DNA of 64,000 bases from Myxococcota bacterium (GTDB taxonomy: Bacteria; Myxococcota; UBA727; JAHDBA01): the NCBI GenBank assembly GCA_020627505.1, contig JAHDGS010000002.1:4213-68212 (forward strand). The letters run 5' to 3'. Made by a program: the position numbers and the translations under genes. Shown piece after piece: positions 11,093 to 60,252 of the stretch (within the stretch, counting starts at the first letter, position 1; each line of letters begins with the position of its first letter). The notes under the pieces were generated by a model. That model saw only the letters and a list, made by a program, of their open reading frames with translations. It did no database searches and was not told the DNA's origin.

Positions 11093-13589
11093 CTATGCGC
11101 GACGTCGTCGACGCATTATAACAAGGCCTAAAGCAGATAACATCAGTGAGGGGTCTGTTGTTTGACAATCGCATCCACCGCCTGTGACAACTGGACCATC
11201 ACCACCATCTGTTTCAGAAGGTTCGTCATCATCACCATCGTTGCATGTCGAGGCGCTTGAAGAAGGGCTACATCCATCATTTGGGTCGCTGCCGTTAGCG
11301 ACTTCGTCACCATCGTTCACACCATCACCATCAGTGTCAGCGTTATTTGGGTTGGTACCTAGAGCTGCCTCTTGTGCGTCAGTCAAGCCATCATTATCAC
11401 GGTCGTCACCTTCTCCACGACAGGCAGCATTATCGACACTTGGAGAACATGGGTCATTTGGATCGGATTGTCCTTTCACTTCAGTCAGTGAGCCCATCAT
11501 CATCGCTATCACGATCATTTGGATCGGTTCCAAGCTGACGCTCTTCCGCATCTGTTAAACCATCATTATCAGAGTCTTGGTTATCTTGAGAACATGCATT
11601 GGCGTTTGGATTTGGCTCACATGGATTTGTTGGCTCTGTATCATTTGCAATACAGACATTTGCGACCGCTAAATCACCATCACAATAACCGTCATTATCA
11701 GAGTCTGGATTATTCGGATTGGTTCCAGCTGCGATTTCCTCTGCAGCAGTGAGACCATCATTATCCGTATCCTCATCAAGATTCTGTTGGCACGCTGTCG
11801 CATTTGGATCTGGATCACATGGATCTGTTGGACTTGATCCTTGCTCGATTTCAGTCCGGTCATTGAGCGTATCACCATCCGTATCAGCAACCGCAGGGTT
11901 ACTGCCAAGGTTTGCCTCTTGCTCATTTGTGAGTCCGTCACCATCGCGGTCACAGGTTGGTGCATCTTGAGAAGGCACGCATGGATTATTATCATCAGGA
12001 TCTGTCGATGCATCAGACCCATCACGATCATTATCAACAGTTGTTCGATCACAGTTTGGATGTGAGGCATCAGGAATACACGCATTATTTGGTGCACTAT
12101 CTTCATTATCATTCACACCATCACCATCAGAATCAACTGATGTCGGATTACTGTTTTCATTATTTGGATCTGTACCCGCTTCAACTTCTTCGCCATCTGT
12201 GAAGTCATCGCCATCAGAGTCTGGGTTTGTCGGATTTGTTCCAGCATCAGCCTCTTCATCATTTGTTAAACCATCATCATCTTGATCGCATGTTCCTGCA
12301 GTGGCACTCGGTACACACGGGTCATTTGGCGCACTATCTTCATCATCTTCGACACCATCGCCATCACGATCGAGTCCATCAGGCTCATCTGTACATTCTT
12401 GCTCTTCAGGGTCACAGTAACCAGAGTTACAGATGATATCTTCAAGGCAGAAGGCACCATTTTCAAACCGACAATTTGGCAGACATTGGTCTCCACCGAT
12501 AGTCTCTCCTCCACCCGGTCCTTCATCACAACCTTCACCAGGTTGGTGCAGATCATTTGCCGTACCACCAATACACAGAGATTCTGTCAGCGCGGGTCGA
12601 CCACCTCGACATATACCGATCGTACAAACATCACTGTCACAGTCGCGGTCTAAGATACAGTAGTCAGTATCTCGACACTCATTGCAGTTTTCTCCACCAC
12701 AATCCACATCTGTTTCATCTTGGTTGCGAAGTCCATCAGCACAACTCACGTTATCAAAGTCTTCTTCACAGGCTACAGTCGCAAAACTGGCACCAACAGG
12801 TGGGAAGAACTTGTTAAACGTACCAGTATTCACTGTAATCGTGTCAGGGAGTTCCCGAAGCTTATGGCCACCTTCTTTTTCACCGATCAACATATTTAAA
12901 TCACCATTCACAACCAAGCGCGCAACCGGACTGTTTACGACGAGATTTCGACCTCTGGTAAATTCGGCAGCAATCACTTTATCATTGTCTGATTCAACAA
13001 GAATATTTTCTTCTTCAACATTACCAATCAAACGGGAGCGACGTGCGCGAATATCAGATTGACAACCTGCTGATGTCCCAAACTGTTCATAAGGGTCGAA
13101 TATCGCATCACGTCTGACCGAACCCAAGTTTAAGAAACCACCGCGGTTACGGGTTTCTGATAAATCAAAATCAGCACCATTTAAGACATTCGCTCGAAGA
13201 ATTCTTTGCGCTGCATCTGTCGCATTATCACAACAATCTGACTCCATTTGAACGTAAACATAGCCGCCCTGGTTCAAAAACCACGTTAAGGCGACACCTT
13301 CAATTGGCTCAAGTTCTTGATCTGTAAAATAGAGTACCCAATCAAAACCATTCACGGCATCTTGAGAGGTGTGATAAAGCTCAACCTGCCCACCACCAGC
13401 GTCACGCGGAAAATCAAAAAAGAACGTGACATTATGACCATCATTTCTCATTTGCTGTAAAAACTCTGGACGAAAACGAACACCGGTATGATCTTCGTCA
13501 GTGACAACGAGTACTTTAGCAGCTTGTGCAGTATAACTGGCTGATAATAGTGTAAAAATAAGTAAAAGCCGAAAAAACGATCTAGACAT
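11093..13589 (-). pseudogene. Large secreted surface protein with TSP3 (thrombospondin type-3, Asp-rich) repeats and a MYXO-CTERM-like anchor, split by a 1-nt frameshift near 11482
   Basis: An ATG at 13589 with an AGGAG RBS gives the signal peptide MSRSFFRLLLIFTLLSASYTAQA. A roughly 270-aa globular domain and a Cys-rich region follow, then more than 10 DTDGDGLTD-type repeats. The frame ends at 11481. The -1 frame continues the repeat ([15 protein letters not shown]...) and ends with [29 protein letters not shown]. Confidence 0.6.
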
Positions 13590-13729
13590 AGATTGATCTC
13601 CTAATAAGCGGTATGTGTGACAACATACCACATACGGGAGATCTTTCTATATGTTTTTTATCAGATCAAGTACAGATCTTTACAGTATATAATAAAGATA
13701 AACCGACTCAAGCTCTGGGCACAGCCTTT

Positions 13730-22066: not shown

Positions 22067-23788
22067 ATGCAAACAGGGAAAAGTGCATTTCGAGCAGGAT
22101 TGGTCGTACTGAGTGCGTTGGTGATCGGCATATACTTTTTCGTTTCCAGTCGAAACTCCACCATCAACGAACGCAATGCATCCTTGTATTACGCGTTTCT
22201 TGAAAATGCGAGTGGCCTCTCAGCCAAGAGCCTTGTGACCGTCGCGGGCTTACAAGTCGGGATTATTGAAGAAATCAAATTGGTCGAGGTCACACGTGGG
22301 GAGTTTACCAATAACCCAGAAATTGAGCGGGTGAATGACGTCATGCGTGTGGCACGGGTGAATCTACGTATCAATAAAGATGTCACGATTCCTGAAGACT
22401 CTCGGCTGCGAAAAGAGTCTCTCGGCTTACTCGGTTCTCAAGCGCTCTTCCTCGATATCGGAACATCACCTGTCTTTCTTCAAGATGGCGAACGCATCGT
22501 CCGAGTTAAAGGCGTCGGCGGAATGGATGCATTGTTTGGAAAAATGGAGACATTGATCGATCGAATTGACGATAATCTCACCGGTATTGTCGCTGATATC
22601 AAAGGTATTACAGGTCAGTTAAACACAGTTGTCACTGGTGGTGATGGTGGTGATGATTTCGCAAAAGTATATCGTGACGTCATGGCACAACTTCAACAGA
22701 CTGTCGGTTCTATTAAAAGCGCAGTTGAAAGTATTGATGGCTTAGTCGATGAAAATAACGGTACTATTACGGCGCTATTAAACAATATTAACGGCATCAC
22801 AGGTGATATCCGACAGATTACAGAGAATGAAGATGGGCGTGGCGATGTTCAAAATACTGTTCGTGCCATTCGTCAAGTTTCGACTGACTTAGCGCTGATT
22901 ACAGGTAAGATTCGCGACGTCGTCGGTGAAAACGATGGTGAAATCGATCGAAGTATTACAGAGTTTAGACAGACCCTTGCTCGATTGAATCGATCGCTTG
23001 AATCCATTGCCAATATCACAGCAAAGGTTGAACGCGGTGAAGGTGCAGCTGGTAAGTTGCTTGCAGATGAGCGGCTTGGTCAACAACTCGAAAGTGCAAT
23101 TGCTGGCGCATCTGACTATATTACGGATGTCACGTCACTTGAAACACATGTTGATATGGGCGCATACCAATCATTGAAAAGACAGGTCTCAAACGTTTCA
23201 TTTCAATTACGTTTACAACCAGCACCTGATAAATATTACTTCCTTGAAGTCGTCAGCGATCGTGGATACGTCGAAAGCGTCAATCAGACTGGTTACTATA
23301 ATGACCAAAATGCAATCGGTGATGATATCATCGTCAGACGTGAGCGGAGCTACCAAATCGACAATCGCATTCGAATTACGGCAATGTACGCGAAGATTTT
23401 CTACGATTTCCTTGTTGTCCGCGCAGGTATTCTTGAAACAAGTGGTGGTCTTGGGATGGACTTTAAGTTTTTGAATGACCGTATCATTCTTAGAAACGAT
23501 CTATTTAACTTCACCGGCCCACGAGACCTGGCGCTTACAGGTGACCCATTCTATGATGACCGAAACTTTCTTCCGCGTCTTCGAACAATGTTGAAGATTC
23601 AGCCTGTTCCATTCTTTTACCTCAATCTTGGTATCGACGACCCGTTGAACTCAATCAACTTTGCCAACGATCCTAATTTCTACTCGCCTGACCCATTTGT
23701 TGATGGCTATGGACTCGACTATATCTTTGGCGTCGGACTTCGATTTACAGATAGTGACCTCAGAGCAATCCTTCCATTCTTGCCCTAG
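22067..23788 (+). CDS. MlaD/MCE family protein with a long C-terminal helical extension
   Basis: N-terminal TM anchor then an MCE domain (NASGLSAKSLVTVAGLQVGIIEEIKLVEV). About 400 aa of repetitive helical sequence follows. Confidence 0.65.
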   Translation: MQTGKSAFRAGLVVLSALVIGIYFFVSSRNSTINERNASLYYAFLENASGLSAKSLVTVAGLQVGIIEEIKLVEVTRGEFTNNPEIERVNDVMRVARVNLRINKDVTIPEDSRLRKESLGLLGSQALFLDIGTSPVFLQDGERIVRVKGVGGMDALFGKMETLIDRIDDNLTGIVADIKGITGQLNTVVTGGDGGDDFAKVYRDVMAQLQQTVGSIKSAVESIDGLVDENNGTITALLNNINGITGDIRQITENEDGRGDVQNTVRAIRQVSTDLALITGKIRDVVGENDGEIDRSITEFRQTLARLNRSLESIANITAKVERGEGAAGKLLADERLGQQLESAIAGASDYITDVTSLETHVDMGAYQSLKRQVSNVSFQLRLQPAPDKYYFLEVVSDRGYVESVNQTGYYNDQNAIGDDIIVRRERSYQIDNRIRITAMYAKIFYDFLVVRAGILETSGGLGMDFKFLNDRIILRNDLFNFTGPRDLALTGDPFYDDRNFLPRLRTMLKIQPVPFFYLNLGIDDPLNSINFANDPNFYSPDPFVDGYGLDYIFGVGLRFTDSDLRAILPFLP

Positions 23789-23804
23789 CGTAAGTTCATA
23801 AATT

Positions 23805-24083
23805 AAAAAATCCGGCTCAAAGGCCGGATTAAAAGGGAAGTTGTGGAGATCGTTTATCTATCTACTCGGCAGTTTCTCTTCATCAGGGTTTTCGTCATGT
23901 CGGTGAATAAAATTGGTTATTTTTTTTATCCGTCAAATGATCGACAAAAATATATGTATGGTCGAAGTGAAAAATCGAATCTCGTTCGTCTTCTATATTG
24001 TAGGCAGAAAGGTCCTCACGGAAATGATGCCTCCTATATGTGTGTTCTTCTAAAACGTCCTGGTTTTCCAGGCGTTTTTTTTG
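23805..24083 (+). repeat. Copy A of a ~275-bp non-coding repeat family (core only)
   Basis: Near-identical to 51992-52267 and 52418-52696, and to the reverse complement of 45112-45262. Bounded by hairpin atccggcTCAAAggccggat at the 5' end and cctggTTTTccagg plus a T8 run at the 3' end. Confidence 0.85.
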
Positions 24084-24120
24084 CCAACACAAAGTTAGCG
24101 CACTTCATACAATAAGATGT

Positions 24121-25035
24121 TTAATGATGTTGTCGCCGTGAGGCAAAAAAGCGATTGAGTTGTGCTTCACATTCATCAGCCAATAAGCCGCTCGTAAACA
24201 TCGTTTGAGATTCCGCCAACCGTTCAAATAAATTCCGATGCAATTTGGTTTGGCGGGTTTGACTTGCGCCAAAGTAAATTTGCAGAATACCTGCGTGCGC
24301 AATCGCGCCAAGACACATCTGGCACGGTTCAAGTGTCGAATATAATACGCAGTCAGAGAGACGCCATCGAGCAAGCTTTTTGCTTGCTTCCGCTATCGCC
24401 AGGCATTCTGCATGCGCCAGGACAGTTTTTTGTTCTTCAACACGATTGAAAGAAATCGATAAGCACGTATCGCCCTGATAAATTGATGCCGCAATTGGAA
24501 TTTCTACTGAATCTTCAGGAATTGCCATACAAAGTTTATGCATACGCGCTCGGTGTTTTGCATGTTCAGCATCGGATAAAAGTTTCTTGGGTTGCCACAT
24601 TGTGAGCTGTTGACGGGCAAGTACATTTAATACGTCGAAGCTTTTTTGTTCTTTCAATGCCAAATCACATTTGCGTATGATCGTCATGACATTTTCATGA
24701 TGCATGTCAGCATAACCATTCTGCTCATCAAGCAACTGGCAATATAGTTCGAATAGAATTGAACGATCGATTGCTGTCACATCGATATGGACTAACACTT
24801 TCGAACGTGATTTTAAGTATAGTCTATACTGCCCCTCATCGTCGTCCAACCAAACGAAATAGCGCCCGCCCTGTTCAAAGAAGAGTGCTACCGCCGATGA
24901 TTCGGGTTCCCGTGTTGTAAGATATAAGTGCACAGGCTCTTTGTCATCGCCACCGAAACTGATCTCCCAGTCTTGCTCAGTCTGGCCAATCACGCGAAGA
25001 CGTTCATAGGCTTTCATTCTGAAACGGGTACCCAC
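24121..25035 (-). CDS. TadA-like tRNA adenosine deaminase domain (C-terminal ~150 aa) fused to an N-terminal ~150-aa domain of unknown function
   Basis: The C-terminal half is collinear with E. coli TadA (HAECLAIAEA ... EPCQMCLGAI ... LADECEAQLNRFFASRRQ). The N-terminal half has no recognisable motif but is in frame with no stops. The start overlaps the upstream ATPase gene by 22 nt. Confidence 0.65.
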   Translation of the reverse strand: MGTRFRMKAYERLRVIGQTEQDWEISFGGDDKEPVHLYLTTREPESSAVALFFEQGGRYFVWLDDDEGQYRLYLKSRSKVLVHIDVTAIDRSILFELYCQLLDEQNGYADMHHENVMTIIRKCDLALKEQKSFDVLNVLARQQLTMWQPKKLLSDAEHAKHRARMHKLCMAIPEDSVEIPIAASIYQGDTCLSISFNRVEEQKTVLAHAECLAIAEASKKLARWRLSDCVLYSTLEPCQMCLGAIAHAGILQIYFGASQTRQTKLHRNLFERLAESQTMFTSGLLADECEAQLNRFFASRRQHH

Positions 25036-27341
25036 AATAACCGAAGTGACTTCAATTCAATATCTGATTTCTCGAGCCGAATCTCTTTCTCCTCAATTGC
25101 TTTCGCTTCTTCCAACATCTCAAACTCAAGATCTTCAATCGCCGTACTCAGCTCCAGTTCAAGCGCTTTGATATCCTCAGTAATTGCATCTCTTTTATCT
25201 TCAGCTTGTTCAATACGTTGCTCGGCTTTACCAACTCGATTATGGGAACGCATTGAACCTGAAATAGAACGACGTCGCCCCATAAAAACACCTAAAATTG
25301 TCTCACCGACATTCATCAGACGTTCCGATTTACGATCTTCTAAGTCTGCCTCATATGTTTCGACTTTATCAACAGCCACATCTAATCGGTCTTTTAGCTT
25401 TTTATGTTTGACTGAAAATCGTTCTTTAAGCTGTGTCAGCTTGTCAAGATGACACGCCTCATATGCATTCATCACACGTTCTGTAAATACTTCTTTGGTT
25501 TCATCTCCAAGACTACGAAGCTTCATTTTTTTGTGAATAAATTGTGTTTTTGAAGCTTCAGCATAGAGCTGTGCCTTAAGGGCTTTTCCTGCTTTTGCGA
25601 CTTCTTTTTGCTCATCAAGAGACGCCGGCAGATCTTCATATGCCCAGTCATACTCTGCCTCTCGAAGTGTTTCTTCAGTATTCACTTCAAAACGTTTCCA
25701 ACGATCTTCTTCAAGTGGATACATGATATAAGAATGCGTCTCATTCACGACATAGTCACCACGTGTATCATCAAATCGACACGCCATTTCAGCGAGCAGG
25801 GCCGGTTTGTATATTCGTTTAGACGCAGGATTTGTTGGCGCAACGCCAAAATATTCGTGGCTGGTTGGGTGATAAACTTTATACTGTGATAGGTATATAT
25901 CATCGATCGGTGCGATCGGTTTAACTGACTGTCCCCTGGCTTTTGCGTTCGACACGGCTTCATTTTGAGGTTCTTTGTCAGCCGCTTTACGTTGCCCAAT
26001 CGGCGTCTCTACATTGATATTAAAGTCTGATACCAGTTTCTGTTCAGCCAGTTTAGGAAACTCTTGTTCAGTGATCGGTCCTCGCAAATATGCGATCGCA
26101 TGTCGACTCGAAATCACTTCGGGCCCATCAAACTTTGGGTGTTGAACTAAAAATTCTCGAGGCGCCAAAGCTTGTATTGTCTCATCCAGATCTGGTCGCC
26201 CCATTCCGTCGAGCAAGCGGCTTCGATCTTGCTTCGTTTGCAGGCGACCAACACACCATAAGCCCGCATTTGAAATTGCCTTGTAGTCGAGATCGATTGG
26301 ATTCTGCGTCGCGAGAACCACTCCAAATCCAACAGCCCGACTCTGTTTCATTAACGTGAGAATCGGGTCTTTGGTGACTGGATTTTTAGGTGCAGGTGGT
26401 AAGAAACCGGCGACTTCATCAAAGAACAGCAAACCCTCTAAATCTTCTGAGCCTTTTTGTGTCCGGGTATACGCCAGTATCTGTGACAATAAAATTGACA
26501 AGAAAAAATGGCGTTCCGATTCACTCAAGTGTGCCAGCGTAAAGATTGATACAGGAACACGTCCGTCTGACCGATCCATGAGCTTGTCAATCGATAATGC
26601 TGGTCCAGTTCGCCAAGCCTCAAAAGTTGGTGCAGCGAGTAGGTTATTCAACGCCATCGCAAGCGCCATTCTTTTCTTTTCTGGACATACAGTTTCAACG
26701 GGAAAAAATCCAATCTTCTCAAATGGTGGATTCATCACTGCAGGAATCAAAGACTCAACAGAGAAATTGAGCTCATCAATTGAGAGATGTTCGAGAATGG
26801 AGCATAGCAATATATGCTCAGGGTCATTAATCGGATCAATATCACGATCGAGCAGCGTGAATAGCCCGGAGACATAAGAGCGTATTAAGTCTGTCTTCGT
26901 TTCAGCTGTCACGCTGCCTTTCATCTCTGGCGCAGCAAGAAGATTGATCGGCGTTGCCGTTGTTCGTCCTGGGGTAAAGAGTTGCACATTCATTTTTTGC
27001 CGTAATGCCGACACATCAGTCTCAGAAATGCCGATTTCTTCAACACCTGTTCGCCAGCGCTGTGCAACATCGGTGGCATCTTCACCTTCTGGCGTCCATG
27101 CGCTAAAATTGGCTGCATTCATTTCTTCAAAAACCAGTGCAAGGTTTGTCAGATCGCCTTTTGGATCGATGGCAATAATAGGAATATCTTGCGCAATCAA
27201 AGACTCCAACAGTGTGACAGAGAAGCCTGTTTTACCGCTGCCTGTCATACCGACAACGATTCCATGTGTTCTCAACCTTTTTGGTTGAATAATAAATGCT
27301 TCATTTTTTTGGGTGAAGCCATTGATTTGAATACTTTTCAT
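25014..27341 (-). CDS. P-loop ATPase of the HerA/FtsK superfamily (DUF853/DUF87-like) with a C-terminal coiled coil
   Basis: Walker A GMTGSGKTG near the N-terminus. IIAIDPKGD, LLFFDEVAGF (Walker B-like) and VLATQNPIDLD ... GRLQTKQDRSRL resemble HerA/YjgR-type ATPases. The last ~150 aa form a charged coiled coil. Confidence 0.55.
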   Translation of the reverse strand: MKSIQINGFTQKNEAFIIQPKRLRTHGIVVGMTGSGKTGFSVTLLESLIAQDIPIIAIDPKGDLTNLALVFEEMNAANFSAWTPEGEDATDVAQRWRTGVEEIGISETDVSALRQKMNVQLFTPGRTTATPINLLAAPEMKGSVTAETKTDLIRSYVSGLFTLLDRDIDPINDPEHILLCSILEHLSIDELNFSVESLIPAVMNPPFEKIGFFPVETVCPEKKRMALAMALNNLLAAPTFEAWRTGPALSIDKLMDRSDGRVPVSIFTLAHLSESERHFFLSILLSQILAYTRTQKGSEDLEGLLFFDEVAGFLPPAPKNPVTKDPILTLMKQSRAVGFGVVLATQNPIDLDYKAISNAGLWCVGRLQTKQDRSRLLDGMGRPDLDETIQALAPREFLVQHPKFDGPEVISSRHAIAYLRGPITEQEFPKLAEQKLVSDFNINVETPIGQRKAADKEPQNEAVSNAKARGQSVKPIAPIDDIYLSQYKVYHPTSHEYFGVAPTNPASKRIYKPALLAEMACRFDDTRGDYVVNETHSYIMYPLEEDRWKRFEVNTEETLREAEYDWAYEDLPASLDEQKEVAKAGKALKAQLYAEASKTQFIHKKMKLRSLGDETKEVFTERVMNAYEACHLDKLTQLKERFSVKHKKLKDRLDVAVDKVETYEADLEDRKSERLMNVGETILGVFMGRRRSISGSMRSHNRVGKAEQRIEQAEDKRDAITEDIKALELELSTAIEDLEFEMLEEAKAIEEKEIRLEKSDIELKSLRLLWVPVSE

Positions 27342-27356
27342 AGCTTCTTTTAACAG

Positions 27357-28331
27357 TTATCGCCGCGTCAGCCAAATGCCTTTGGTCGAAACAATCTGTT
27401 CGTCATTTTGCGACATGAAATCTCGGCCAAGTGGCATCTTTACGATGTCGAATTGAATCTGATATTTATGAAAAGCATGTTCAACTGTATCGAATAAACT
27501 CGTATGGTTTAGACGTCGACTATTACATGCAAAACACAAAAAGCCGCCTGGTGATAGAAGCTGTGCACAGGCTTCGGCTAAGGTCAAAAGCTGCGTGCTG
27601 GCCTGCATATTGTCTCCACGCGCTTGAGACGCACCACGAGAAAAGACTGGCGGATCACAAAAGATAATATCATAACGACGTTCTTGTCGGATCAGTCGCT
27701 TTAAAAATTTGAATGCATCGTCGATAATGAATCGATGTGCTTTCGGATCGCCCCCATTGAGCGCATAGTTATGTGCAGCCCATGTTGCTGTTTTCCGTGC
27801 TGCGTCAACATGATCGATATGTGCTGCACCACCACATATCGCCGCCACACCTGTAGCACCAGCATGCGCAAAAAGGTTGAGTACTTTTTGCCCTGGTGCG
27901 AGGTATTCGATGCGATCTCTTGTTAAGCGTTGATCGAAAAAGATGCCGACACCACCAGCCCCTGCGTCACCTAGGCGAACGTTGACGCGCCGATTTCGCT
28001 CACGAATCTGTACTTCTACTTCATGGACCGTGTCATGAATAACTTTAATGCGCCCTTTTTTCTGGCGAAGAATCGAAACAATCCCTTGTGGATTGACCCG
28101 GTGAGAAATGAGCTGACAGATATCCGAATTCATTCCTGCAAGATTCGGATCGTAATACTCTACGCGAATATAGTCGCCGTAACGATCGATGACGAGGTCA
28201 GCACAACCATCACCAGATCGATCGAATAGACGATGACTATGATGACAGACGTCATCAACACCTTCTGAAAACCATTTAAGCCGAAGCGATATCGCACGCT
28301 CGATATCGGCTAATACTTTTGAACGCTGCAT
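27357..28331 (-). CDS. Class I SAM-dependent RNA methyltransferase, RlmI/RlmK-like
   Basis: DLVIDRYGDYIRVEYY (RlmI N-terminal-domain-like), GVAAICGGAAHIDHVD (SAM binding) and IIFCDPPVFSRG (catalytic DPP/F motif). Confidence 0.6.
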   Translation of the reverse strand: MQRSKVLADIERAISLRLKWFSEGVDDVCHHSHRLFDRSGDGCADLVIDRYGDYIRVEYYDPNLAGMNSDICQLISHRVNPQGIVSILRQKKGRIKVIHDTVHEVEVQIRERNRRVNVRLGDAGAGGVGIFFDQRLTRDRIEYLAPGQKVLNLFAHAGATGVAAICGGAAHIDHVDAARKTATWAAHNYALNGGDPKAHRFIIDDAFKFLKRLIRQERRYDIIFCDPPVFSRGASQARGDNMQASTQLLTLAEACAQLLSPGGFLCFACNSRRLNHTSLFDTVEHAFHKYQIQFDIVKMPLGRDFMSQNDEQIVSTKGIWLTRR

Positions 28332-32737: not shown

Positions 32738-32970
32738 ATAGAATCTTTTTCTCGATTCTAACATGCTGTTTTTATTGACTTATTTATTTTTTAGGCATTT
32801 TTTTTGCCCCATCTAAGTGAAACATCGGTCATTTGTCGTCTTCTATAGTATAGCGGGGGAAATCTCAGGGGGGATACTGGAAATCCAATGCTCGACTAGC
32901 ATACAAACTCAGTGACGTGACAAGCGCACTGAGTTTTTCTTTTGTGTCTGACTTTTGATAATATTTTGAA

Positions 32971-44977: not shown

Positions 44978-45262
44978 CCCACAAAACGAAGCGCCGACCA
45001 AGGCCGGCACTTCTGAACACACATATCGGAGGTCATTTCCTTGAAGGTTATTCCCTCATAGAGAGGTTTCATATCTCCACTATTTTCGTCACGACATGTT
45101 GTGGTTTCACCAAAAAAACGCCTGGCGAACCAGGACGTTTTAGAACACACATATAGGAGGCATCATTTCCGTGAGGACCTTTCTGCCTACATAATAGAAG
45201 ACGAACGATAATTGATTTTTCACTTCGACCATCCATGTTTTTTTATCGGAAAAATGACCGAT
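44978..45262 (-). repeat. Copy B of the repeat family: 5'-truncated core plus extension module, inverted orientation, immediately 3' of ftsK
   Basis: The reverse complement matches 52130-52397 (core 3' half plus extension) and includes both terminal hairpins. Confidence 0.8.
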
Positions 45263-50297: not shown

Positions 50298-51947
50298 TTA
50301 GTGTTTTGAGTTGATGGAGTCGCTCAATTGCAAAAAGAACTGCTTCCCTTTTTGAGTCAACGCCTCACCCTCAAGATAGCCATGTGTCCTTAATAATTCC
50401 GAAGTCATATCATGTTCTGATAACCGATGGATAAGCCTTGTGACGACTATACTCGAATCGTGTTTATCATTATCTTCTTCTTGGATCTTGAAAATTGTGT
50501 TGAGTGTTTCTAGTTGTTCTTCACCAAGTTCAAAATAAGATGTATTTTCAATTTCTTTCATAAATGCGTCAGCAAATAGATAACCAATTAAATCCAATCC
50601 ATGCCGTCTCGGGTGAACCATATCATCATGCATCCAACCGCGCTTGGCGAGTTTTTTGATCGCGCCACGTCCGCCCATCGCTTCAAATGTATTCCAATAA
50701 GCACAGCCGAGTTCTAATGACTTTGTCTTGAATAATTGATTGATGGGCTTCAGTTGCTTGCGGGTGATATATCGCGGATTTTGCGATAATGGGTAAATAT
50801 TCTCGATTGGACCAATGATAATGCATTCTGCCCGTGGGAGAATAGAACGAATTTCAGAAATGCGATCTTCAATTCCTTCTTCTATCTTTTTAAGCGTTCT
50901 TTTACCCCAAGCTAAACGCTTAATCTCATTCCCGCCAAGCGAAAATATAATGAGGTCTGAATCAAGGGCTGATAGCTGTTTTCGAACTAGCGCAGGATCT
51001 CTTTTTTCAAAAGTGACAAAGTCCGCGGCTGGTACACCAAATGTATCAACAATGACGCCTGGCTGTTCCATTTCTAATGAAAGTCCATGAACGACGTATC
51101 CACCCTTTCCGGTCAGTTTTACCTTTTCGACGTGTTCAGGAATAGGAATAGAATGCTGACCATGCCCTTTCACCGAATCGATGGTCATCACAAAATCCTG
51201 ACCGACTAATCGAGGTTGATGTGATTCTTCGATATGAATGGACTCAATAAAGGGCCTGATGATTTTTTCTTTTTTCGTGAAGAAGGTCGCTGATGCCGAA
51301 CGGTGCTTTGGGGCGACATGCAATACACCCGCGAGCCCATGCGGGTATTCTCCAAATGAACCCATCGCAATATTGTGGGTCTTAAAGCCGCGCGCATATT
51401 TGCCGGTTCGCGTTCGACGACCATACTCTGCCATCCGATCGGCCAGCATCCATCCACGCCCACCATCACCGAAGTGATGCTGAAATGTGTCACGAATGAC
51501 ATCAATGATATGATCTGAAGCAATCAACGAGTTACCAAAAACCGAAATTCGAAAGTGACGACTCGCATCATAAGTTGAAAATTGCTGCTGTCGCATGTCC
51601 TGCAATCGCGATAGTCTTAATCGACTGTAGGAAAGTGCATCAATGATGCAGTGACCATCAAGTTTTAAATTACACGGTATATCAAGGAATGCAGAAGGCA
51701 TCCTCATCTTTTGCGCAGTTGCTCGCGACCGCTTAACCGGCTTCATCGGAACATATTTGTATGCTTGTGCAAGGATCGGCATACTTGCCTGAAGCTGATT
51801 CAATGCTTTTTCTTCTGGTGTCACTTCTGGAGGAGACACTTTAATCTGGCGATTATCATTTTCAGTGACATCGACTTGATGCTTTTCACCACATGCCAAG
51901 AATATTGTTAGATAAGGTATACATCCTAAATAAATGAGCCCGCGCAT
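50298..51947 (-). CDS. Lipoprotein with a C-terminal SGNH/GDSL-hydrolase-like domain
   Basis: Lipobox LACG. The C-terminal region has a GGNE block and a DDMVHP (D-x-x-H) block typical of the SGNH fold. The assignment is tentative. Confidence 0.4.
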   Translation of the reverse strand: MRGLIYLGCIPYLTIFLACGEKHQVDVTENDNRQIKVSPPEVTPEEKALNQLQASMPILAQAYKYVPMKPVKRSRATAQKMRMPSAFLDIPCNLKLDGHCIIDALSYSRLRLSRLQDMRQQQFSTYDASRHFRISVFGNSLIASDHIIDVIRDTFQHHFGDGGRGWMLADRMAEYGRRTRTGKYARGFKTHNIAMGSFGEYPHGLAGVLHVAPKHRSASATFFTKKEKIIRPFIESIHIEESHQPRLVGQDFVMTIDSVKGHGQHSIPIPEHVEKVKLTGKGGYVVHGLSLEMEQPGVIVDTFGVPAADFVTFEKRDPALVRKQLSALDSDLIIFSLGGNEIKRLAWGKRTLKKIEEGIEDRISEIRSILPRAECIIIGPIENIYPLSQNPRYITRKQLKPINQLFKTKSLELGCAYWNTFEAMGGRGAIKKLAKRGWMHDDMVHPRRHGLDLIGYLFADAFMKEIENTSYFELGEEQLETLNTIFKIQEEDNDKHDSSIVVTRLIHRLSEHDMTSELLRTHGYLEGEALTQKGKQFFLQLSDSINSKH

Positions 51948-51991
51948 GACAGAAGCATAAGTGATTTATGAAATAAGGTGAATCAGAGAAC

Positions 51992-52397
51992 AAAAAAATC
52001 CGGCGCAAAGGCCGGATTAAAAGGGGAAGTTGTTGAGATAGTTTGTCTATCTACTATGCCGTTTCTTGGCATCAGGGTTTTCGTCATATATATGAATAAA
52101 ATTGGGGATCTTATTTATCCGTCAAATGACCGATAAAAAAACATGAATGGTCGAAGTGAAAAATCAAATATCGTTCGTCTTCTATCCTGTAGGCAGAAAA
52201 GTCCTCACGGAAATGATGCCTCCTATATGTGTGTTCTAAAACGTCCTGGTTCGCCAGGCGTTTTTTTGGTGAAACCACAACATGTCGTGACGAAAATAGT
52301 GGAGATATGAAACCTCTCTATGAGGGAATAACCTTCAAGGAAATGACCTCCGATATGTGTGTTCAGAAGTGCCGGCCTTGGTCGGCACTTCGTTTTT
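51992..52397 (+). repeat. Copy C of the repeat family: full core (51992-52267) plus extension module (52268-52397)
   Basis: See copy A. The extension ends in its own 9-bp hairpin (gaagtgccg...cggcacttc) followed by GTTTTT. Its last 60 nt are a diverged duplicate of the core's 3' end. Confidence 0.85.
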
Positions 52398-52417
52398 ATC
52401 ATGTATTTTACTGCCAC

Positions 52418-52696
52418 AAAAAAATCCGGCGCAAAGGCCGGATTAAAAGGGGAAGTTGTTGAGATAGTTAATCTATCTATAAAGAGATTTTTCCACACAA
52501 GTCTTTTCGTCATATATATGAAGAAAATTGGTCATTTTATTTGTCCGTCAAATAACCGATAAAAAATATGAATGGTCGAAGTGAAAAATCGAAGATTGTT
52601 CGTCTTCTATTGTGTAGGCGGAAAAGTCCTCACGGAAATGATGCCTCCGATATGTGTGTTTTTCTAAAACGTCCTGGTTCGCCAGGTTTTTTTTTT
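52418..52696 (+). repeat. Copy D of the repeat family (core only), in tandem with copy C
   Basis: Starts 20 bp after copy C with the same A-run/hairpin atccggcGCAAAGgccggat. Ends with cctggTTCGccagg plus a T10 run. Confidence 0.85.
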
Positions 52697-52720: not shown

Positions 52721-53497
52721 CTAATCCAGCTTGTATTTGACCCCAACTGAAAGCGTTGAGTCTGGGTTCAGACCATCTCCAAGTTCTCCGGCTGCGATAG
52801 CTGTTGAACCTCGAAAGGACAGCGCTGCCGAATCTGACACATCATAATCAACACGCGCAGCAAGCCTAAATACAGCGCCATACGAATCTTCCCCCGGGGC
52901 GATATCTAAATTTTTTAAGACACTAAGTGTCGGTTTTGCTTCGAGATATAATGTTCGACCGCCACCACCGATATATTGAGAGAGCTGAGATACCATGCCA
53001 TCGATATGTAGCCCCACATTCCCTTGACCAAAGGCGACACCTGCACCAAGCGTTGAGGCTGTCTTTTGCCCTCGAATCACACCACCGATATTGATCATAT
53101 TCAAGCCATCATCAAACTCATACGCAATGGAGGGAAGATTCATATCCCAGTAGTCACTCGCAAGAGCGACTCTGAGCTCGGCATGCTCAAGGTTCGTATG
53201 CCCATTAAAATCACTGGCAAATTCAATTCCTGCACGTCCAAGTAACATGTCAGACGTCCCCTCAGAATCATAGTCCTGAATCATGAACGAATATTCACTA
53301 CCAAAAGTCATTTGTGGTGTTCGATCGACTGTAGCCCCTAAGTTGATAGCAACCCCACGCGTATAGCCGCTTAAGTCTCTATTCGGTGGATCTGTCTCTT
53401 CCGTTGCCTCTGAATTTTGTGTCGACTGATTTTCGACAGATATTTCATTTTTCGTTTGAGGGGGAATAATATTCTGAACTCGATTATTAATCTTCAT
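52721..53497 (-). CDS. Hypothetical protein (258 aa), last gene of the ppk1 operon
   Basis: Gly-rich with alternating-hydrophobic segments. No clear signal peptide. Confidence 0.4.
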   Translation of the reverse strand: MKINNRVQNIIPPQTKNEISVENQSTQNSEATEETDPPNRDLSGYTRGVAINLGATVDRTPQMTFGSEYSFMIQDYDSEGTSDMLLGRAGIEFASDFNGHTNLEHAELRVALASDYWDMNLPSIAYEFDDGLNMINIGGVIRGQKTASTLGAGVAFGQGNVGLHIDGMVSQLSQYIGGGGRTLYLEAKPTLSVLKNLDIAPGEDSYGAVFRLAARVDYDVSDSAALSFRGSTAIAAGELGDGLNPDSTLSVGVKYKLD

Positions 53498-57816: not shown

Positions 57817-58710
57817 ATGAAAACAGCAATTGTGACAGGTGCAAACTCAGGCATTGGCTTTGTGACTGCCCGAGAATTACTCAAAGATGGTTATCGTGTT
57901 CTATGCTTATCTCGCAATATGCGTAAACTCGATGCAGCTGTACAAAATCTAGCCACACAAACAGGCTCAAAAGAGTGTCTTGCCATTCGATGTGACCTCG
58001 CCTCATTTAAATCTATTCGAAATGCAGTTCAATCTGTCAAAGACTGTACTGATGAAATCCACTTACATATCAATAATGCTGGTTTAATTTTAAGTGAGCG
58101 ACAGATCACTGAAGATAGTCACGAAGCGACATTTCAGATCAATCATCTGGGTCCATTTCTGTTGACGCAATCTTTACTTCCGCTGATTGAAAAAGCAGCC
58201 GGGGCATCAGGAGATTGTTCACGTATCATTAATGTTTCATCGATCGCACACAAAGCCGGTCTCAAAAATTTTTGGGACTTCAAAGCTGAAAAATCTTATA
58301 AACAGTTTGATGTCTATGGTCGTTCGAAGCTGGCTAATATTCTGTATGCCAAAGCACTCGCGACACGTCTTGACCCGGCGATATGTACCGCGAACGCATT
58401 ACACCCTGGTGTCATCAAGTCTGCATTTGGCGCCGATGGCGATACCAAAGGTCTTTTTGCTTGGGGCGTCAAGTTGATGCCAAAGTTGCCTAACTTTATT
58501 TCTGGCTTGATGACCGTCGAACAAGGTGCCGAAACGACATTATACGTTGCGCGCTCAGAAGAGGGCAGTCAGGTCACCGGGCAATATTTTAAGAACAGCC
58601 GAATTGCAAAACCGAAGACTTTGGGCGACGAAGCGATCGAACGCTTTTATCACTATAGTTTAACGTGCAGCGGCGCACCTGAAATACCTGCTTCATTCTC
58701 TTCTCATTGA
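57817..58710 (+). CDS. SDR family oxidoreductase (retinol-dehydrogenase-like)
   Basis: TGANSGIG Rossmann motif, NNAG, and catalytic Y-x-x-x-K (YGRSK). Confidence 0.8.
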   Translation: MKTAIVTGANSGIGFVTARELLKDGYRVLCLSRNMRKLDAAVQNLATQTGSKECLAIRCDLASFKSIRNAVQSVKDCTDEIHLHINNAGLILSERQITEDSHEATFQINHLGPFLLTQSLLPLIEKAAGASGDCSRIINVSSIAHKAGLKNFWDFKAEKSYKQFDVYGRSKLANILYAKALATRLDPAICTANALHPGVIKSAFGADGDTKGLFAWGVKLMPKLPNFISGLMTVEQGAETTLYVARSEEGSQVTGQYFKNSRIAKPKTLGDEAIERFYHYSLTCSGAPEIPASFSSH

Positions 58711-59984
58711 GTGCTTTCTTTCTTCACATCAGATTTTATCTGTGACAACAAAATCTCAAAAGCATTCTCAGCGGTGGTTACAAACCCCCATGTTTGTCTT
58801 TGGTAATCAAGAGCTCGAGATGCGACTTGGCTTTTGATAGGGTGAACAACAGAATATGACTTGCGCCGAATTGCCTTCATCGACGCTTCCAAACCTGATA
58901 ATTTATACTGTAGTTCAAAAGCATTTTTTCGTAATAGCCCTTGATCAGAAAGTGTCGTGACGACCTCCTTACAGACCGTGAAGATATCCGCCAGCTCGGT
59001 ATCAATGTCATTTACCCCCTGCTGAGTACTCAACTCTTTTAACAACAAGGGTAGGTTCGTAAAATAACCAATTAAACCAGATTTCTGCGCATCATCATCT
59101 AGGATCTCTTCAAGCCGTGACCCTCTATCAGTCAGCGCCTCAACTTTTAAACAATGCTCTTCTATTTCCTCTTGTATCGTTTCACTACCGACCCATGCTT
59201 GGGCTATTTTTTCATACGAATCTTCCCCCGTGCTATCTTGCGTCGACATCTGGAAATGCATATGCTTCCACACCAATCTGGCAGCCTGTAACTGCATATA
59301 TTCATATCCTGGTTCAAGTTCGAGTTTAAGTTGATTATTTAAATCACACACCATCCAGCTGTCGGATGGCGCACTTGGACTGCTCTCAAACAATCTCTCT
59401 GTACGGGTGATTTGAATTTGTAGACGATGGACATCAAAGTATCCGTTCGTCATTTCCTGCCAAAAAGATGCCAAATCCTTCAAGATACTTTGATGTTCAT
59501 CTGCCAAACCATTCTGTGCCAACTTTTCAAGTTGTCTATCAAAATTCGAAATAATCTGCTCAAGCTCTGCAATTGGTTTTGACCGAATAGGGAGAGAATT
59601 TTCAGATTTGAGTATTTCTTGAAATAGATAGTTAATTTGAAGAATTGGTAAGTTCATTTGAACGAGTCTATCTCGTCGTTTTTGAATGATCTCATCAAGC
59701 TTTTCTTCTGGGATGCTTTCATTAGCCGCCAAATACGCATCGATGCTATGCCGGGCTCTTTCTTTGAGCTGTTCTATATTCAGCTTTTCAAGTCCTTCAA
59801 CAAACGCATGATGATCATGAAGCGCATCTAAATAGTCACTTATTTGCGGAGTCATCACCTTATCGAAGCCATAATGAAATTTAATATTTTGAAGATATTG
59901 ACCGAAACCATTAAGCAGTCCACGGCTCCGATTATTTAGCCTGTTGAATATCATAACTCCCCGACATCTTAAGACGAGCATCAA
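58704..59984 (-). CDS. Hypothetical protein (426 aa)
   Basis: Long ORF, mostly helical. No recognisable motif. Confidence 0.4.
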   Translation of the reverse strand: MMLVLRCRGVMIFNRLNNRSRGLLNGFGQYLQNIKFHYGFDKVMTPQISDYLDALHDHHAFVEGLEKLNIEQLKERARHSIDAYLAANESIPEEKLDEIIQKRRDRLVQMNLPILQINYLFQEILKSENSLPIRSKPIAELEQIISNFDRQLEKLAQNGLADEHQSILKDLASFWQEMTNGYFDVHRLQIQITRTERLFESSPSAPSDSWMVCDLNNQLKLELEPGYEYMQLQAARLVWKHMHFQMSTQDSTGEDSYEKIAQAWVGSETIQEEIEEHCLKVEALTDRGSRLEEILDDDAQKSGLIGYFTNLPLLLKELSTQQGVNDIDTELADIFTVCKEVVTTLSDQGLLRKNAFELQYKLSGLEASMKAIRRKSYSVVHPIKSQVASRALDYQRQTWGFVTTAENAFEILLSQIKSDVKKESTQ

Positions 59985-60252
59985 TTGAATTTTCGCTTCA
60001 ATAGCGACTCTACATCTATCTTTATTGGATCCTTGACCGATGCTTTCTTCTACTCAGAACAAGTCTGATGCAAAACATACTCAAAACATCATGATATACC
60101 ACGAAAGCGTCCTTAAGAACTCGAGATACTTATCAAGTATTTATCACCAGAAAAGTGATTTGGCAGCTTCATTATGCGAGACGCTGCTCATCACCTTTCC
60201 GAACTTGGGTAAGACGTCTTTTCAATATATCTTCCAATCGCTTGAACAAGCC

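Follow-up and report, generated by a model that had tools for sequence, protein, structure and literature searches.

The stretch of DNA analysed here (the window, 64,000 nucleotides (nt) from a Myxococcota bacterium) carries at positions 23805-24082 one copy, named A, of a repeated element of about 280 nt, which lies directly behind a gene of the MlaD/MCE family. On balance, this copy is probably a back-to-back pair of candidate sibling small RNA (sRNA) genes, here named L and R, from a family that is not in Rfam. The ~280-nt unit would consist of two transcription units which start in its middle and run outward. L would be transcribed on the minus strand (about 23902 to 23803) from a sigma-70-like promoter, TTGACG-16-AATTTT, ending at the hairpin beside the MCE gene and exposing a C/U-rich single strand (..CAACUUCCCUUUUAA) just ahead of its terminator. 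R would be transcribed on the plus strand (about 24003 to 24082), driven by an upstream block of the form AAGTGAAAnATC-N9-TCGTCTTC-TATNNT, which would probably bind a dedicated activator or an alternative sigma factor; this RNA would comprise a short 5' stem-loop, a single-stranded CCUCCUAUAUGUGUGUUC and an end at CCUGG/CCAGG followed by U8. A preliminary description of the same DNA had placed the whole unit in the sense orientation, as an RNA element derived from the 3' untranslated region (3'UTR) of the MCE gene or associated with its terminator. It is better read as autonomous sRNA genes lying between convergent genes than as an element derived from that 3'UTR. The anatomy of the unit, its conservation across copies, the strand polarity of its terminators and the recurrence of the block upstream of R can all be seen directly in the DNA.

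Copy A belongs to a real repeat family, as had been proposed. A repeat search matched 23831-24048 (218 nt) with copies from 52020 (87%) and 52445 (61%), and also paired it with an inverted partial copy at 45142-45262. An nhmmer profile built from the three full copies A, C and D recovered these copies with E-values of about 1e-97 to 1e-100 (A, 23802-24083, 8.8e-99; C, 51990-52269, 1.9e-100; D, 52416-52696, 3.4e-97), and the right half only of copy B (45262-45110, minus strand, E = 4e-48). The copies are assembled from modules: A and D are L+R, B is R+R2 and lacks L, and C is L+R+R2, giving four copies of R, two of R2 and three of L in the window. R2 follows C (52263-52400) and B (45116-44983), and copy A, without this extension of ~130 nt, is indeed core-only, as it had been called. 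Three GGA motifs, an 11-bp terminator and a possible promoter of its own (GTGAAA..AATAGT) are found in R2, which differs from R by a 1-nt deletion just upstream of the shared sequence CCTCCnATATGTGTG and is otherwise unalignable with it. The segments 44983-45262 (minus strand) and 52117-52396 (plus strand), at loci 7 kb apart, form a 280-nt inverted duplication over R+R2 that is 96% identical and looks like the product of recent duplication or gene conversion. The homology among copies begins at an A-run and stops at a T-run, exactly at the proposed transcript ends.

The polarity of the two terminal hairpins determines how the unit is to be read. The two predicted terminators, both found by a terminator scan, are as follows.

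23803 to 23830, minus strand: L terminator, with the stem AAUCCGGC/GCCGGAUU, a 6-nt loop and the minus-strand tail UUUUAAUUU.
24055 to 24082, plus strand: R terminator, CCUGG-UUUU-CCAGG with an ACG/CGU extension, then U8.

The left hairpin (hairpin 1, 23809-23830) is AATCCGGC / TCAAAG / GCCGGATT. On the minus strand it reads AATCCGGCC..GCCGGATT and is then followed by TTTTAATTT or TTTTTGT; on the plus strand the sequence behind it (UUAAAAGGG, TTAAAAGGG) is no U-tract. In each of the full copies A, C and D, the scan flagged hairpin 1 for the minus strand alone and the right hairpin for the plus strand alone; the R2 terminator was flagged too. The right hairpin is CCTGG / TTTT / CCAGG (24059-24072), followed by CG and by T8 at 24075-24082, and copy B likewise has the R hairpin and T-run. 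An intrinsic terminator on its own strand, a generic feature of sRNA genes, is thus found for L in A, C and D and for R in A, C and D (in B, as hairpin and T-run). In the L terminator 8/8 pairs are invariant in A, C and D, and in the R terminator the five core pairs are invariant in four copies while the loop varies. Since the conserved unit is bounded by outward terminators and by the limits of homology, it would be expected to give two transcripts that start in mid-unit and run outward.

Much of the preliminary description was borne out. The hairpins, loop differences and single stem mismatch that it described are all present in the sequence: the loop of hairpin 1 is TCAAAG in A and GCAAAG in C and D, that of the 3' hairpin is TTTT in A and TTCG in B, C and D, and the stems are retained in both cases. 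The element does lie 17 bp behind the MCE stop codon, its opening A-run at 23805 being the 17th base past the TAG at 23786-23788. The start of the described span, 23805-24083, therefore stands, and its end moves by one base, as T8 closes at 24082. The sense orientation of the whole unit does not survive, as the T-run of hairpin 1 is confined to the minus strand in all three full copies and the two terminators point outward.

The neighbours on which the 3'UTR proposal rests are these.

22067 to 23788, plus strand: MlaD/MCE-family gene from the list of open reading frames (ORFs), stop codon TAG at 23786-23788, Pfam MlaD match at 2e-10.
24121 to 25035, minus strand: convergent TadA-like deaminase ORF, with Pfam matches to MafB19-deam and dCMP_cyt_deam_1 over residues 160-300.

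In that proposal the whole unit would be a sense 3'UTR or terminator-associated RNA element of the MCE gene, perhaps processed to a stable RNA, and we consider this unlikely. The layout at A does fit: between the MCE stop at 23788 and the hairpin with T8 at 24059-24082 the scan found no canonical plus-strand terminator. That hairpin is hence the first canonical plus-strand terminator met by transcription past the MCE gene, which could end there on read-through, and its suggested role as the terminator of that gene holds to this extent; the hairpin next to the gene is a minus-strand one. Copy B is similarly placed, 20 nt past the stop of a co-oriented ftsK gene with no terminator between, and faces a convergent ORF. 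sRNAs produced from mRNA 3' ends, by processing or from internal promoters, are moreover a known class (PMC9438474). Against this, C and D form a tandem flanked on both sides by minus-strand genes (50298-51947 and 52721-53497), and their R units have no co-oriented gene upstream, so that a 3'UTR origin, although compatible with the layout at A and B, is impossible at C and D and cannot explain the family. Every copy that bears the left hairpin carries the T-run of that hairpin on the opposite strand, and B lacks the left half entirely. The block upstream of R is also common to two further loci, E and F, with homology ending near the start site, which suggests that R has a promoter of its own.

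This block and the features downstream of it make up the R unit.

23965 to 23999, plus strand: R upstream block, formed by AAGTGAAAAATC (23965-23976), 9 variable bases, TCGTCTTC (23986-23993) and a -10-like TATATT (23994-23999).
24003 to 24031, plus strand: R 5' stem-loop in the predicted folds, GGCA/UGCC around UCC-UCAC-GGA.
24030 to 24054, plus strand: R single strand CCUCCUAUAUGUGUGUUCUUCUAAA, a proposed anti-Shine-Dalgarno seed, unpaired in all folds.

The elements of the block are AAGTGAAA, TCGTCTT and TATNNT, and its motif core is AAGTGAAAnATC-N9-TCGTCTT. The pattern AAGTGAAANATC-N9-TCGTCTT occurs exactly five times in the window, in A, B, C, D and E (32815-32842), and a sixth time with two mismatches at F (59971-59998, minus strand), where chance would yield 0.06 matches of any quality. 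The five loci with the exact pattern also retain TATNNT, in which only the two middle bases vary. In sigma-70 -10 elements the two middle positions are those that best tolerate change. When the six occurrences were aligned, similarity ran from about -75 to just beyond TATNNT and was followed by three unrelated continuations, namely the R body, an RNA-like sequence with its own terminator at E, and the start of the protein gene 58704-59984 at F. As the shared segment ends at the predicted start site, before different products, it points to a promoter or regulator site and not to homology of coding sequence or RNA body. The consensus sequences of sigma-54, sigma-28, sigma-32 and extracytoplasmic function (ECF)-type sigma factors were compared with the block by eye, and none of them fits its sequence and spacing together.

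Downstream of the block, the predicted R body of ~80 nt (about 24003-24082, with a 5' end uncertain by about 10 nt) consists of the GGCA/UGCC stem-loop, the unpaired CCUCCUAUAUGUGUGUUC.. and the terminator. All pairs of the stem-loop (7/7) are kept in four copies, with one A-U to G-U change in D, and R folds better than shuffled sequences in 3/4 copies (z = -2.2 to -2.9). The sequence CCTCCnATATGTGTG within the single strand is kept in 4/4 R and 2/2 R2 copies. A family of sibling sRNAs has at least two paralogues that share a seed and a regulatory motif, and here the seed CCTCCnATATGTGTG occurs six times and the upstream motif six times.

Two of the loci that share the block deserve a description of their own. 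At locus E (32812-32945, plus strand) the block, AAGTGAAACATC-N9-TCGTCTTCTATAGT, leads into an RNA-like sequence of ~90 nt, different from R, which contains three GGA motifs and has a terminator of its own. Its predicted fold is good (z = -4.26), nothing in Rfam matches it, and it probably represents a further small RNA controlled in common with R. Locus F (59930-60045, minus strand) carries a diverged version of the sequence upstream of R (about -75 to +5), located directly ahead of the ORF 58704-59984 or at its start. The 426-residue product of this ORF had no Pfam, NCBIfam or PADLOC match, and the gene is a possible protein-coding member of an R-block regulon.

The right half of the unit can also be read as protein-coding, through one further feature.

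23958 to 24053, plus strand: small ORF of 31 codons, MVEVKNRISFVFYIVGRKVLTEMMPPICVFF, overlapping the R block and R.

Here the right half would encode a protein of 30-31 residues, MVEVKN..FVFY.VG.KVLTEMMPPICVF(F), with the conserved block as coding sequence, and R would correspond to the 3' portion of the mRNA for this protein or serve as a dual-function RNA. The ORF recurs in the other copies (52147-52239 and 52572-52667 on the plus strand, 45140-45232 on the minus strand) with its ATG and TAA kept in A, B, C and D. The sole indel is of 3 nt and in frame, four changes are synonymous, and the stop lies 3 nt ahead of the terminator, as in a compact gene. Several observations nevertheless make this explanation improbable. 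Variable sites are distributed 3:4:4 over codon positions 1, 2 and 3, with no excess at the third. In codon 14 (I/P/C/Y) the first two positions vary and the third is fixed, the pattern that TATNNT would produce. Both boxes of the block are retained at locus E at the nucleotide level, where there is an in-frame TAA and no ATG, and R2 keeps the 3' nucleotides across the frame-breaking 1-nt deletion. Conservation of CCTCCnATATGTGTG across this indel between R and R2 indicates that it acts at the nucleotide level. The ATG is not preceded by a Shine-Dalgarno sequence, and a profile search of 1.84 billion representative proteins returned three long repeat proteins only (with a reiterated Y-x-EGRKVL-x-EM) and no small-protein family. 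With a divergence of ~6%, survival of the ORF in four copies is itself weak evidence. Three other frames were discarded: a 90-residue plus-strand ORF (23843-24115) is present in A only, changes in the plus-strand peptide MNKIGDLIYPSNDR fall mostly at first codon positions, and an ORF on the L strand, starting from ATGACGAAAA, differs in length among the three copies (14, 34 or 96 codons).

The predicted L unit runs in the opposite direction, with the following features ahead of its terminator.

23909 to 23936, minus strand: proposed L promoter, with -35 TTGACG (23936-23931), a 16-nt spacer and -10 AATTTT (23914-23909).
23889 to 23902, minus strand: invariant L 5' block AUGACGAAAA with the approximate L start, placed from the position of the -10; 0/10 columns vary.
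23864 to 23888, minus strand: hypervariable 25-nt segment; 15/25 columns vary and no hairpin is kept across copies.
23847 to 23863, minus strand: hairpin 2, AGAUAG/CUAUCU in C and D, with one mismatch in copy A.
23831 to 23846, minus strand: C/U-rich single strand, a proposed seed, CACAACUUCCCUUUUAA in A; 2/17 columns vary among the three L copies, and the folds of C and D leave it unpaired.

The promoter has the same hexamers at the same distance in all L copies (3/3), and the predicted RNA is ~100 nt long (about 23902 to 23803). Hairpin 2 of copy A (AGATCG / TTTAT / CTATCT) has the one mismatch, a C.T pair, that the preliminary description reported; the other 5/6 pairs are invariant among the copies, and the loop varies at two positions. 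The conserved unpaired stretch just ahead of the terminator reads CAACAACUUCCC(C)UUUUAA, and L folds with z = -1.6 to -4.4 relative to shuffles. The hypervariable segment and its counterparts in C and D have 60% variable columns as against 0-18% in the flanking blocks, which could reflect relaxed constraint or diversification of a second targeting region. The Rfam model of PrrF (RF00444), the best near-match, aligns on L, the promoter part of the model included. L was rejected as a PrrF member, as its 19-28 bits fall short of the gathering score, 90, and it has no Fur box; the best candidate for such a box in the L promoter matches 10-11/19 positions, and more than 700 19-mers of the window score at least 11.

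Variation is spread unequally over the unit. Among the columns of the named hairpins in A, C and D, 3/42 stem columns vary versus 5/15 loop columns (Fisher p = 0.024), and 4/56 predicted stem columns versus 51/223 other columns (p = 0.008). Substitutions are thus not random with respect to stem pairing, as the preliminary description required, but the support is modest. The invariance of the stems is compatible with purifying selection on terminators or, equally, with recent duplication. By segment, variable columns amount to 0-18% in the terminators, the proposed seeds, the invariant L 5' block and the R upstream block, to 23-30% in the L promoter and the central spacer, and to 60% in the 25-nt segment of L. 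Conservation this uneven argues against uniform neutral decay, and judged from the preferential conservation of its hairpin stems the element very probably acts at the RNA level.

The same pattern bears on the possibility that the family is a selfish or neutral dispersed repeat, similar to miniature inverted-repeat transposable elements (MITE) or repetitive extragenic palindromic (REP) sequences, bounded by hairpins and lacking an RNA function, in which the parts of promoters and terminators are incidental. Several copies, all of them strictly intergenic, a hairpin at each end, sharp limits of homology and a lack of homologues in the collections scanned are what such a repeat would show. Its ends are not inverted repeats beyond the A/T runs, though, and inspection of the flanks showed no target-site duplication. 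There are three module combinations in place of one fixed unit, decay ranges from 0% to 60% variable columns by segment, and both end hairpins are properly oriented outward intrinsic terminators. We therefore give a dispersed repeat only a low probability.

As candidate sRNAs, L and R would act in trans, pairing through their pyrimidine-rich single strands (CCUCC.. in R and R2, CUUCCC.. in L) with the purine-rich ribosome-binding regions of target mRNAs, and the proposed seeds of this pairing are CCUCCUAUAUGUGUG and CUUCCCCUUUU. Sibling sRNAs of the anti-Shine-Dalgarno type, NmsRA/B among them, pair in this manner (PMC5362039). The presence of several copies (four of R, two of R2, three of L) would provide dosage or separate control. 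At locus A, where the MCE gene (plus strand) and the deaminase ORF (minus strand, ending at 24121) converge, the outward terminators may in addition stop read-through from the neighbours. The R terminator is followed on its minus-strand side by UUUUAG (four U), and may weakly end the convergent deaminase gene too. Transcription of the two units, the start sites and ends of their RNAs, the trans-acting pairing and its targets are all predictions from the features described above.

Two other RNA-based mechanisms were considered together, and both are highly improbable: a type I toxin-antitoxin-like pair, in which the small ORF would be accompanied by a divergent, antisense-acting L, and an RNA family that titrates CsrA/RsmA. 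The layout resembles that of tisB/istR, shoB/ohsC and zorO/orzO, in which a small ORF and an sRNA are divergent and multiple tandem or dispersed copies occur, and R2 and E each have three GGA motifs, as titration would suggest. The peptide, for its part, is not a hydrophobic helix and has charged residues throughout, the energy of an L-R duplex is no better than that of shuffles (22-26% of which equal it), and B has R without L. In relation to Csr/Rsm sponges (clan CL00106), R has a single GGA, predicted to lie inside a 3-bp stem and not in a loop, and the rsmX match, at 13.8 bits, is far below the gathering score of 56.

Searches among known families and in other genomes gave little. With Rfam 15 at gathering thresholds the whole window had no match, and the best relaxed scores (A, C/D, E), PrrF 28.1 versus 90, rseX 21.6 versus 50 and rsmX 13.8 versus 56, were none of them credible. 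A search for tRNA and tmRNA found none. Exact-pattern scans for the R seed in genome and metagenome collections gave 0 matches, and a scan of genomes for the promoter block gave seven in unrelated genomes (Prevotella and other Bacteroidales, and one Tateyamaria), which were treated as chance. The loci of the closest relatives (83 kb; MCE homologue 52%, FtsK motors 68-73%) contained no element, motif or seed.

Several points weigh against the interpretation of L and R as sibling sRNA genes. As no homologue was found outside the window, the evidence from conservation comes from three to four paralogues in one 64-kb window only, and these may be young duplicates or have been homogenised by gene conversion. 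Neither R (four copies) nor the conserved L hairpins have compensatory base-pair changes; the sole double change in L lies inside a non-conserved hairpin. R of copy D folds no better than shuffles (z = +0.13). The L -10 is weak (3/6 matches), leaving this promoter under the threshold of the scan tool, and the R block is without a recognisable -35 hexamer and fits no sigma consensus known to us. An ORF of 30-31 codons covers the R block and R in all four copies. A search of the window for the seed complement matched only the elements themselves, and a duplex scan of its 318 candidate start regions gave internal or doubtful starts only and hence no convincing target. Finally, the expression of L and R is a prediction.

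A wider interpretation can be put forward, which we regard as rather unlikely when all its parts are taken together. Under this view a dedicated regulator, or an alternative sigma factor, of an unsampled and Myxococcota-related lineage would act through the R block as its promoter. Its regulon would consist mostly of small RNAs, with at least five RNA units plus a protein gene in 64 kb; L and R would be a back-to-back cassette duplicated as one, and R might double as the message for the 30-residue peptide (a dual-function RNA). If the RNAs are expressed, they would represent a new family of sibling sRNAs with a shared promoter motif, in a lineage whose RNA regulation is almost unexplored, and a clear case of two unrelated sRNA genes duplicated together; the six motif occurrences in 64 kb would then offer a direct handle on one regulon. 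There is also a lesson for annotation, namely that a hairpin-bounded repeat behind a gene need not be a 3'UTR, and that the strand of the U-tract decides the reading.

The host seems to belong to a lineage not yet sampled, with metagenome-assembled genomes (MAGs) of Myxococcota as its relatives. The GC content of the window is about 44%, and all the window proteins checked are singletons at 90% identity in a collection of 15 billion proteins. The closest non-self homologue of the MCE protein has 52% identity; its MCE/MlaD NCBIfam matches are under the curated cut-offs. The FtsK motor is 53-73% identical to the matches listed, and those with an organism name are Myxococcota or Myxococcales MAGs. 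In a related MAG (L012, 12380-12790), a 640-nt gap after ftsK holds a large, near-perfect inverted repeat (~12380-12530 versus 12630-12790), unrelated in sequence to the element.

Two further regions of the window were noted in passing. The deaminase ORF 24121-25035, for which NCBIfam TadA scores 80.6 bits against a cut-off of 150 and which is probably over-extended at its 5' end, belongs to a minus-strand cluster (24121-28331) where it adjoins a 775-residue HerA/FtsK-like ATPase and a methyltransferase. PADLOC matches in this cluster were weak (mad8, 6.8e-13; mad2, 7.7e-17), and it may be either housekeeping or defence-related. At 11093-13631 (minus strand) there are families of 69-nt direct repeats (11330-12371), most of them inside the ORF 11481-13631 and the first in the adjoining ORF 11093-11551. 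Pfam assigns bacterial thrombospondin type 3 repeats (TSP3_bac) to the product of ORF 11481-13631, which is probably a repeat protein of an ordinary kind.

Sibling sRNAs with anti-Shine-Dalgarno seeds are known from several bacteria, including the LhrC1-5 family of Listeria and the csRNAs of Streptococcus. Tandem intergenic sibling sRNAs with anti-Shine-Dalgarno motifs form an established class, for example NmsRA/NmsRB of Neisseria (PMC5362039), and duplicates of csrB are another example of sibling sRNAs, for which dosage and differential control have been discussed (PMC6262261). Like siblings of the NmsRA/B type, the candidates described here are paralogues of 70-100 nt, intergenic and in part tandem, each with an apparent promoter of its own and an intrinsic terminator. 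They also have in common with them an upstream motif shared among the copies, which speaks for a single regulator, and a conserved pyrimidine-rich single strand (CCUCC, CUUCCC) that could readily pair with ribosome-binding sites. They differ in having no kinship with them in sequence or in Rfam, and in that two unrelated predicted RNAs, L and R, are co-duplicated back-to-back.

Comparison can also be made with sRNAs located at mRNA 3' ends, transcribed from a promoter of their own and ended by the terminator of the mRNA, such as MicX, DapZ and MicL (reviewed in PMC9438474). As in these, R at A and B lies directly behind a co-oriented ORF with no terminator between, and its terminator would end the mRNA; unlike in these, the proposed R promoter is outside the ORF, C and D have no parental mRNA, and an own promoter-like block defines the family. 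PrrF1/PrrF2 (RF00444) resemble L in being multi-copy or tandem and ~100-150 nt long, in the TTGAC of the -35, in a 3' part rich in C/U and in the presence of a terminator. Locus A recalls a bidirectional terminator, as it lies between convergent genes and its R terminator has four U on the reverse side, but it has two outward terminators 230 nt apart with conserved sequence between them, and its left hairpin is without a plus-strand U-tract. The kind of element is thus well known, and what is new is the family itself and the unusual co-duplicated pair with its distinctive shared promoter-like block.

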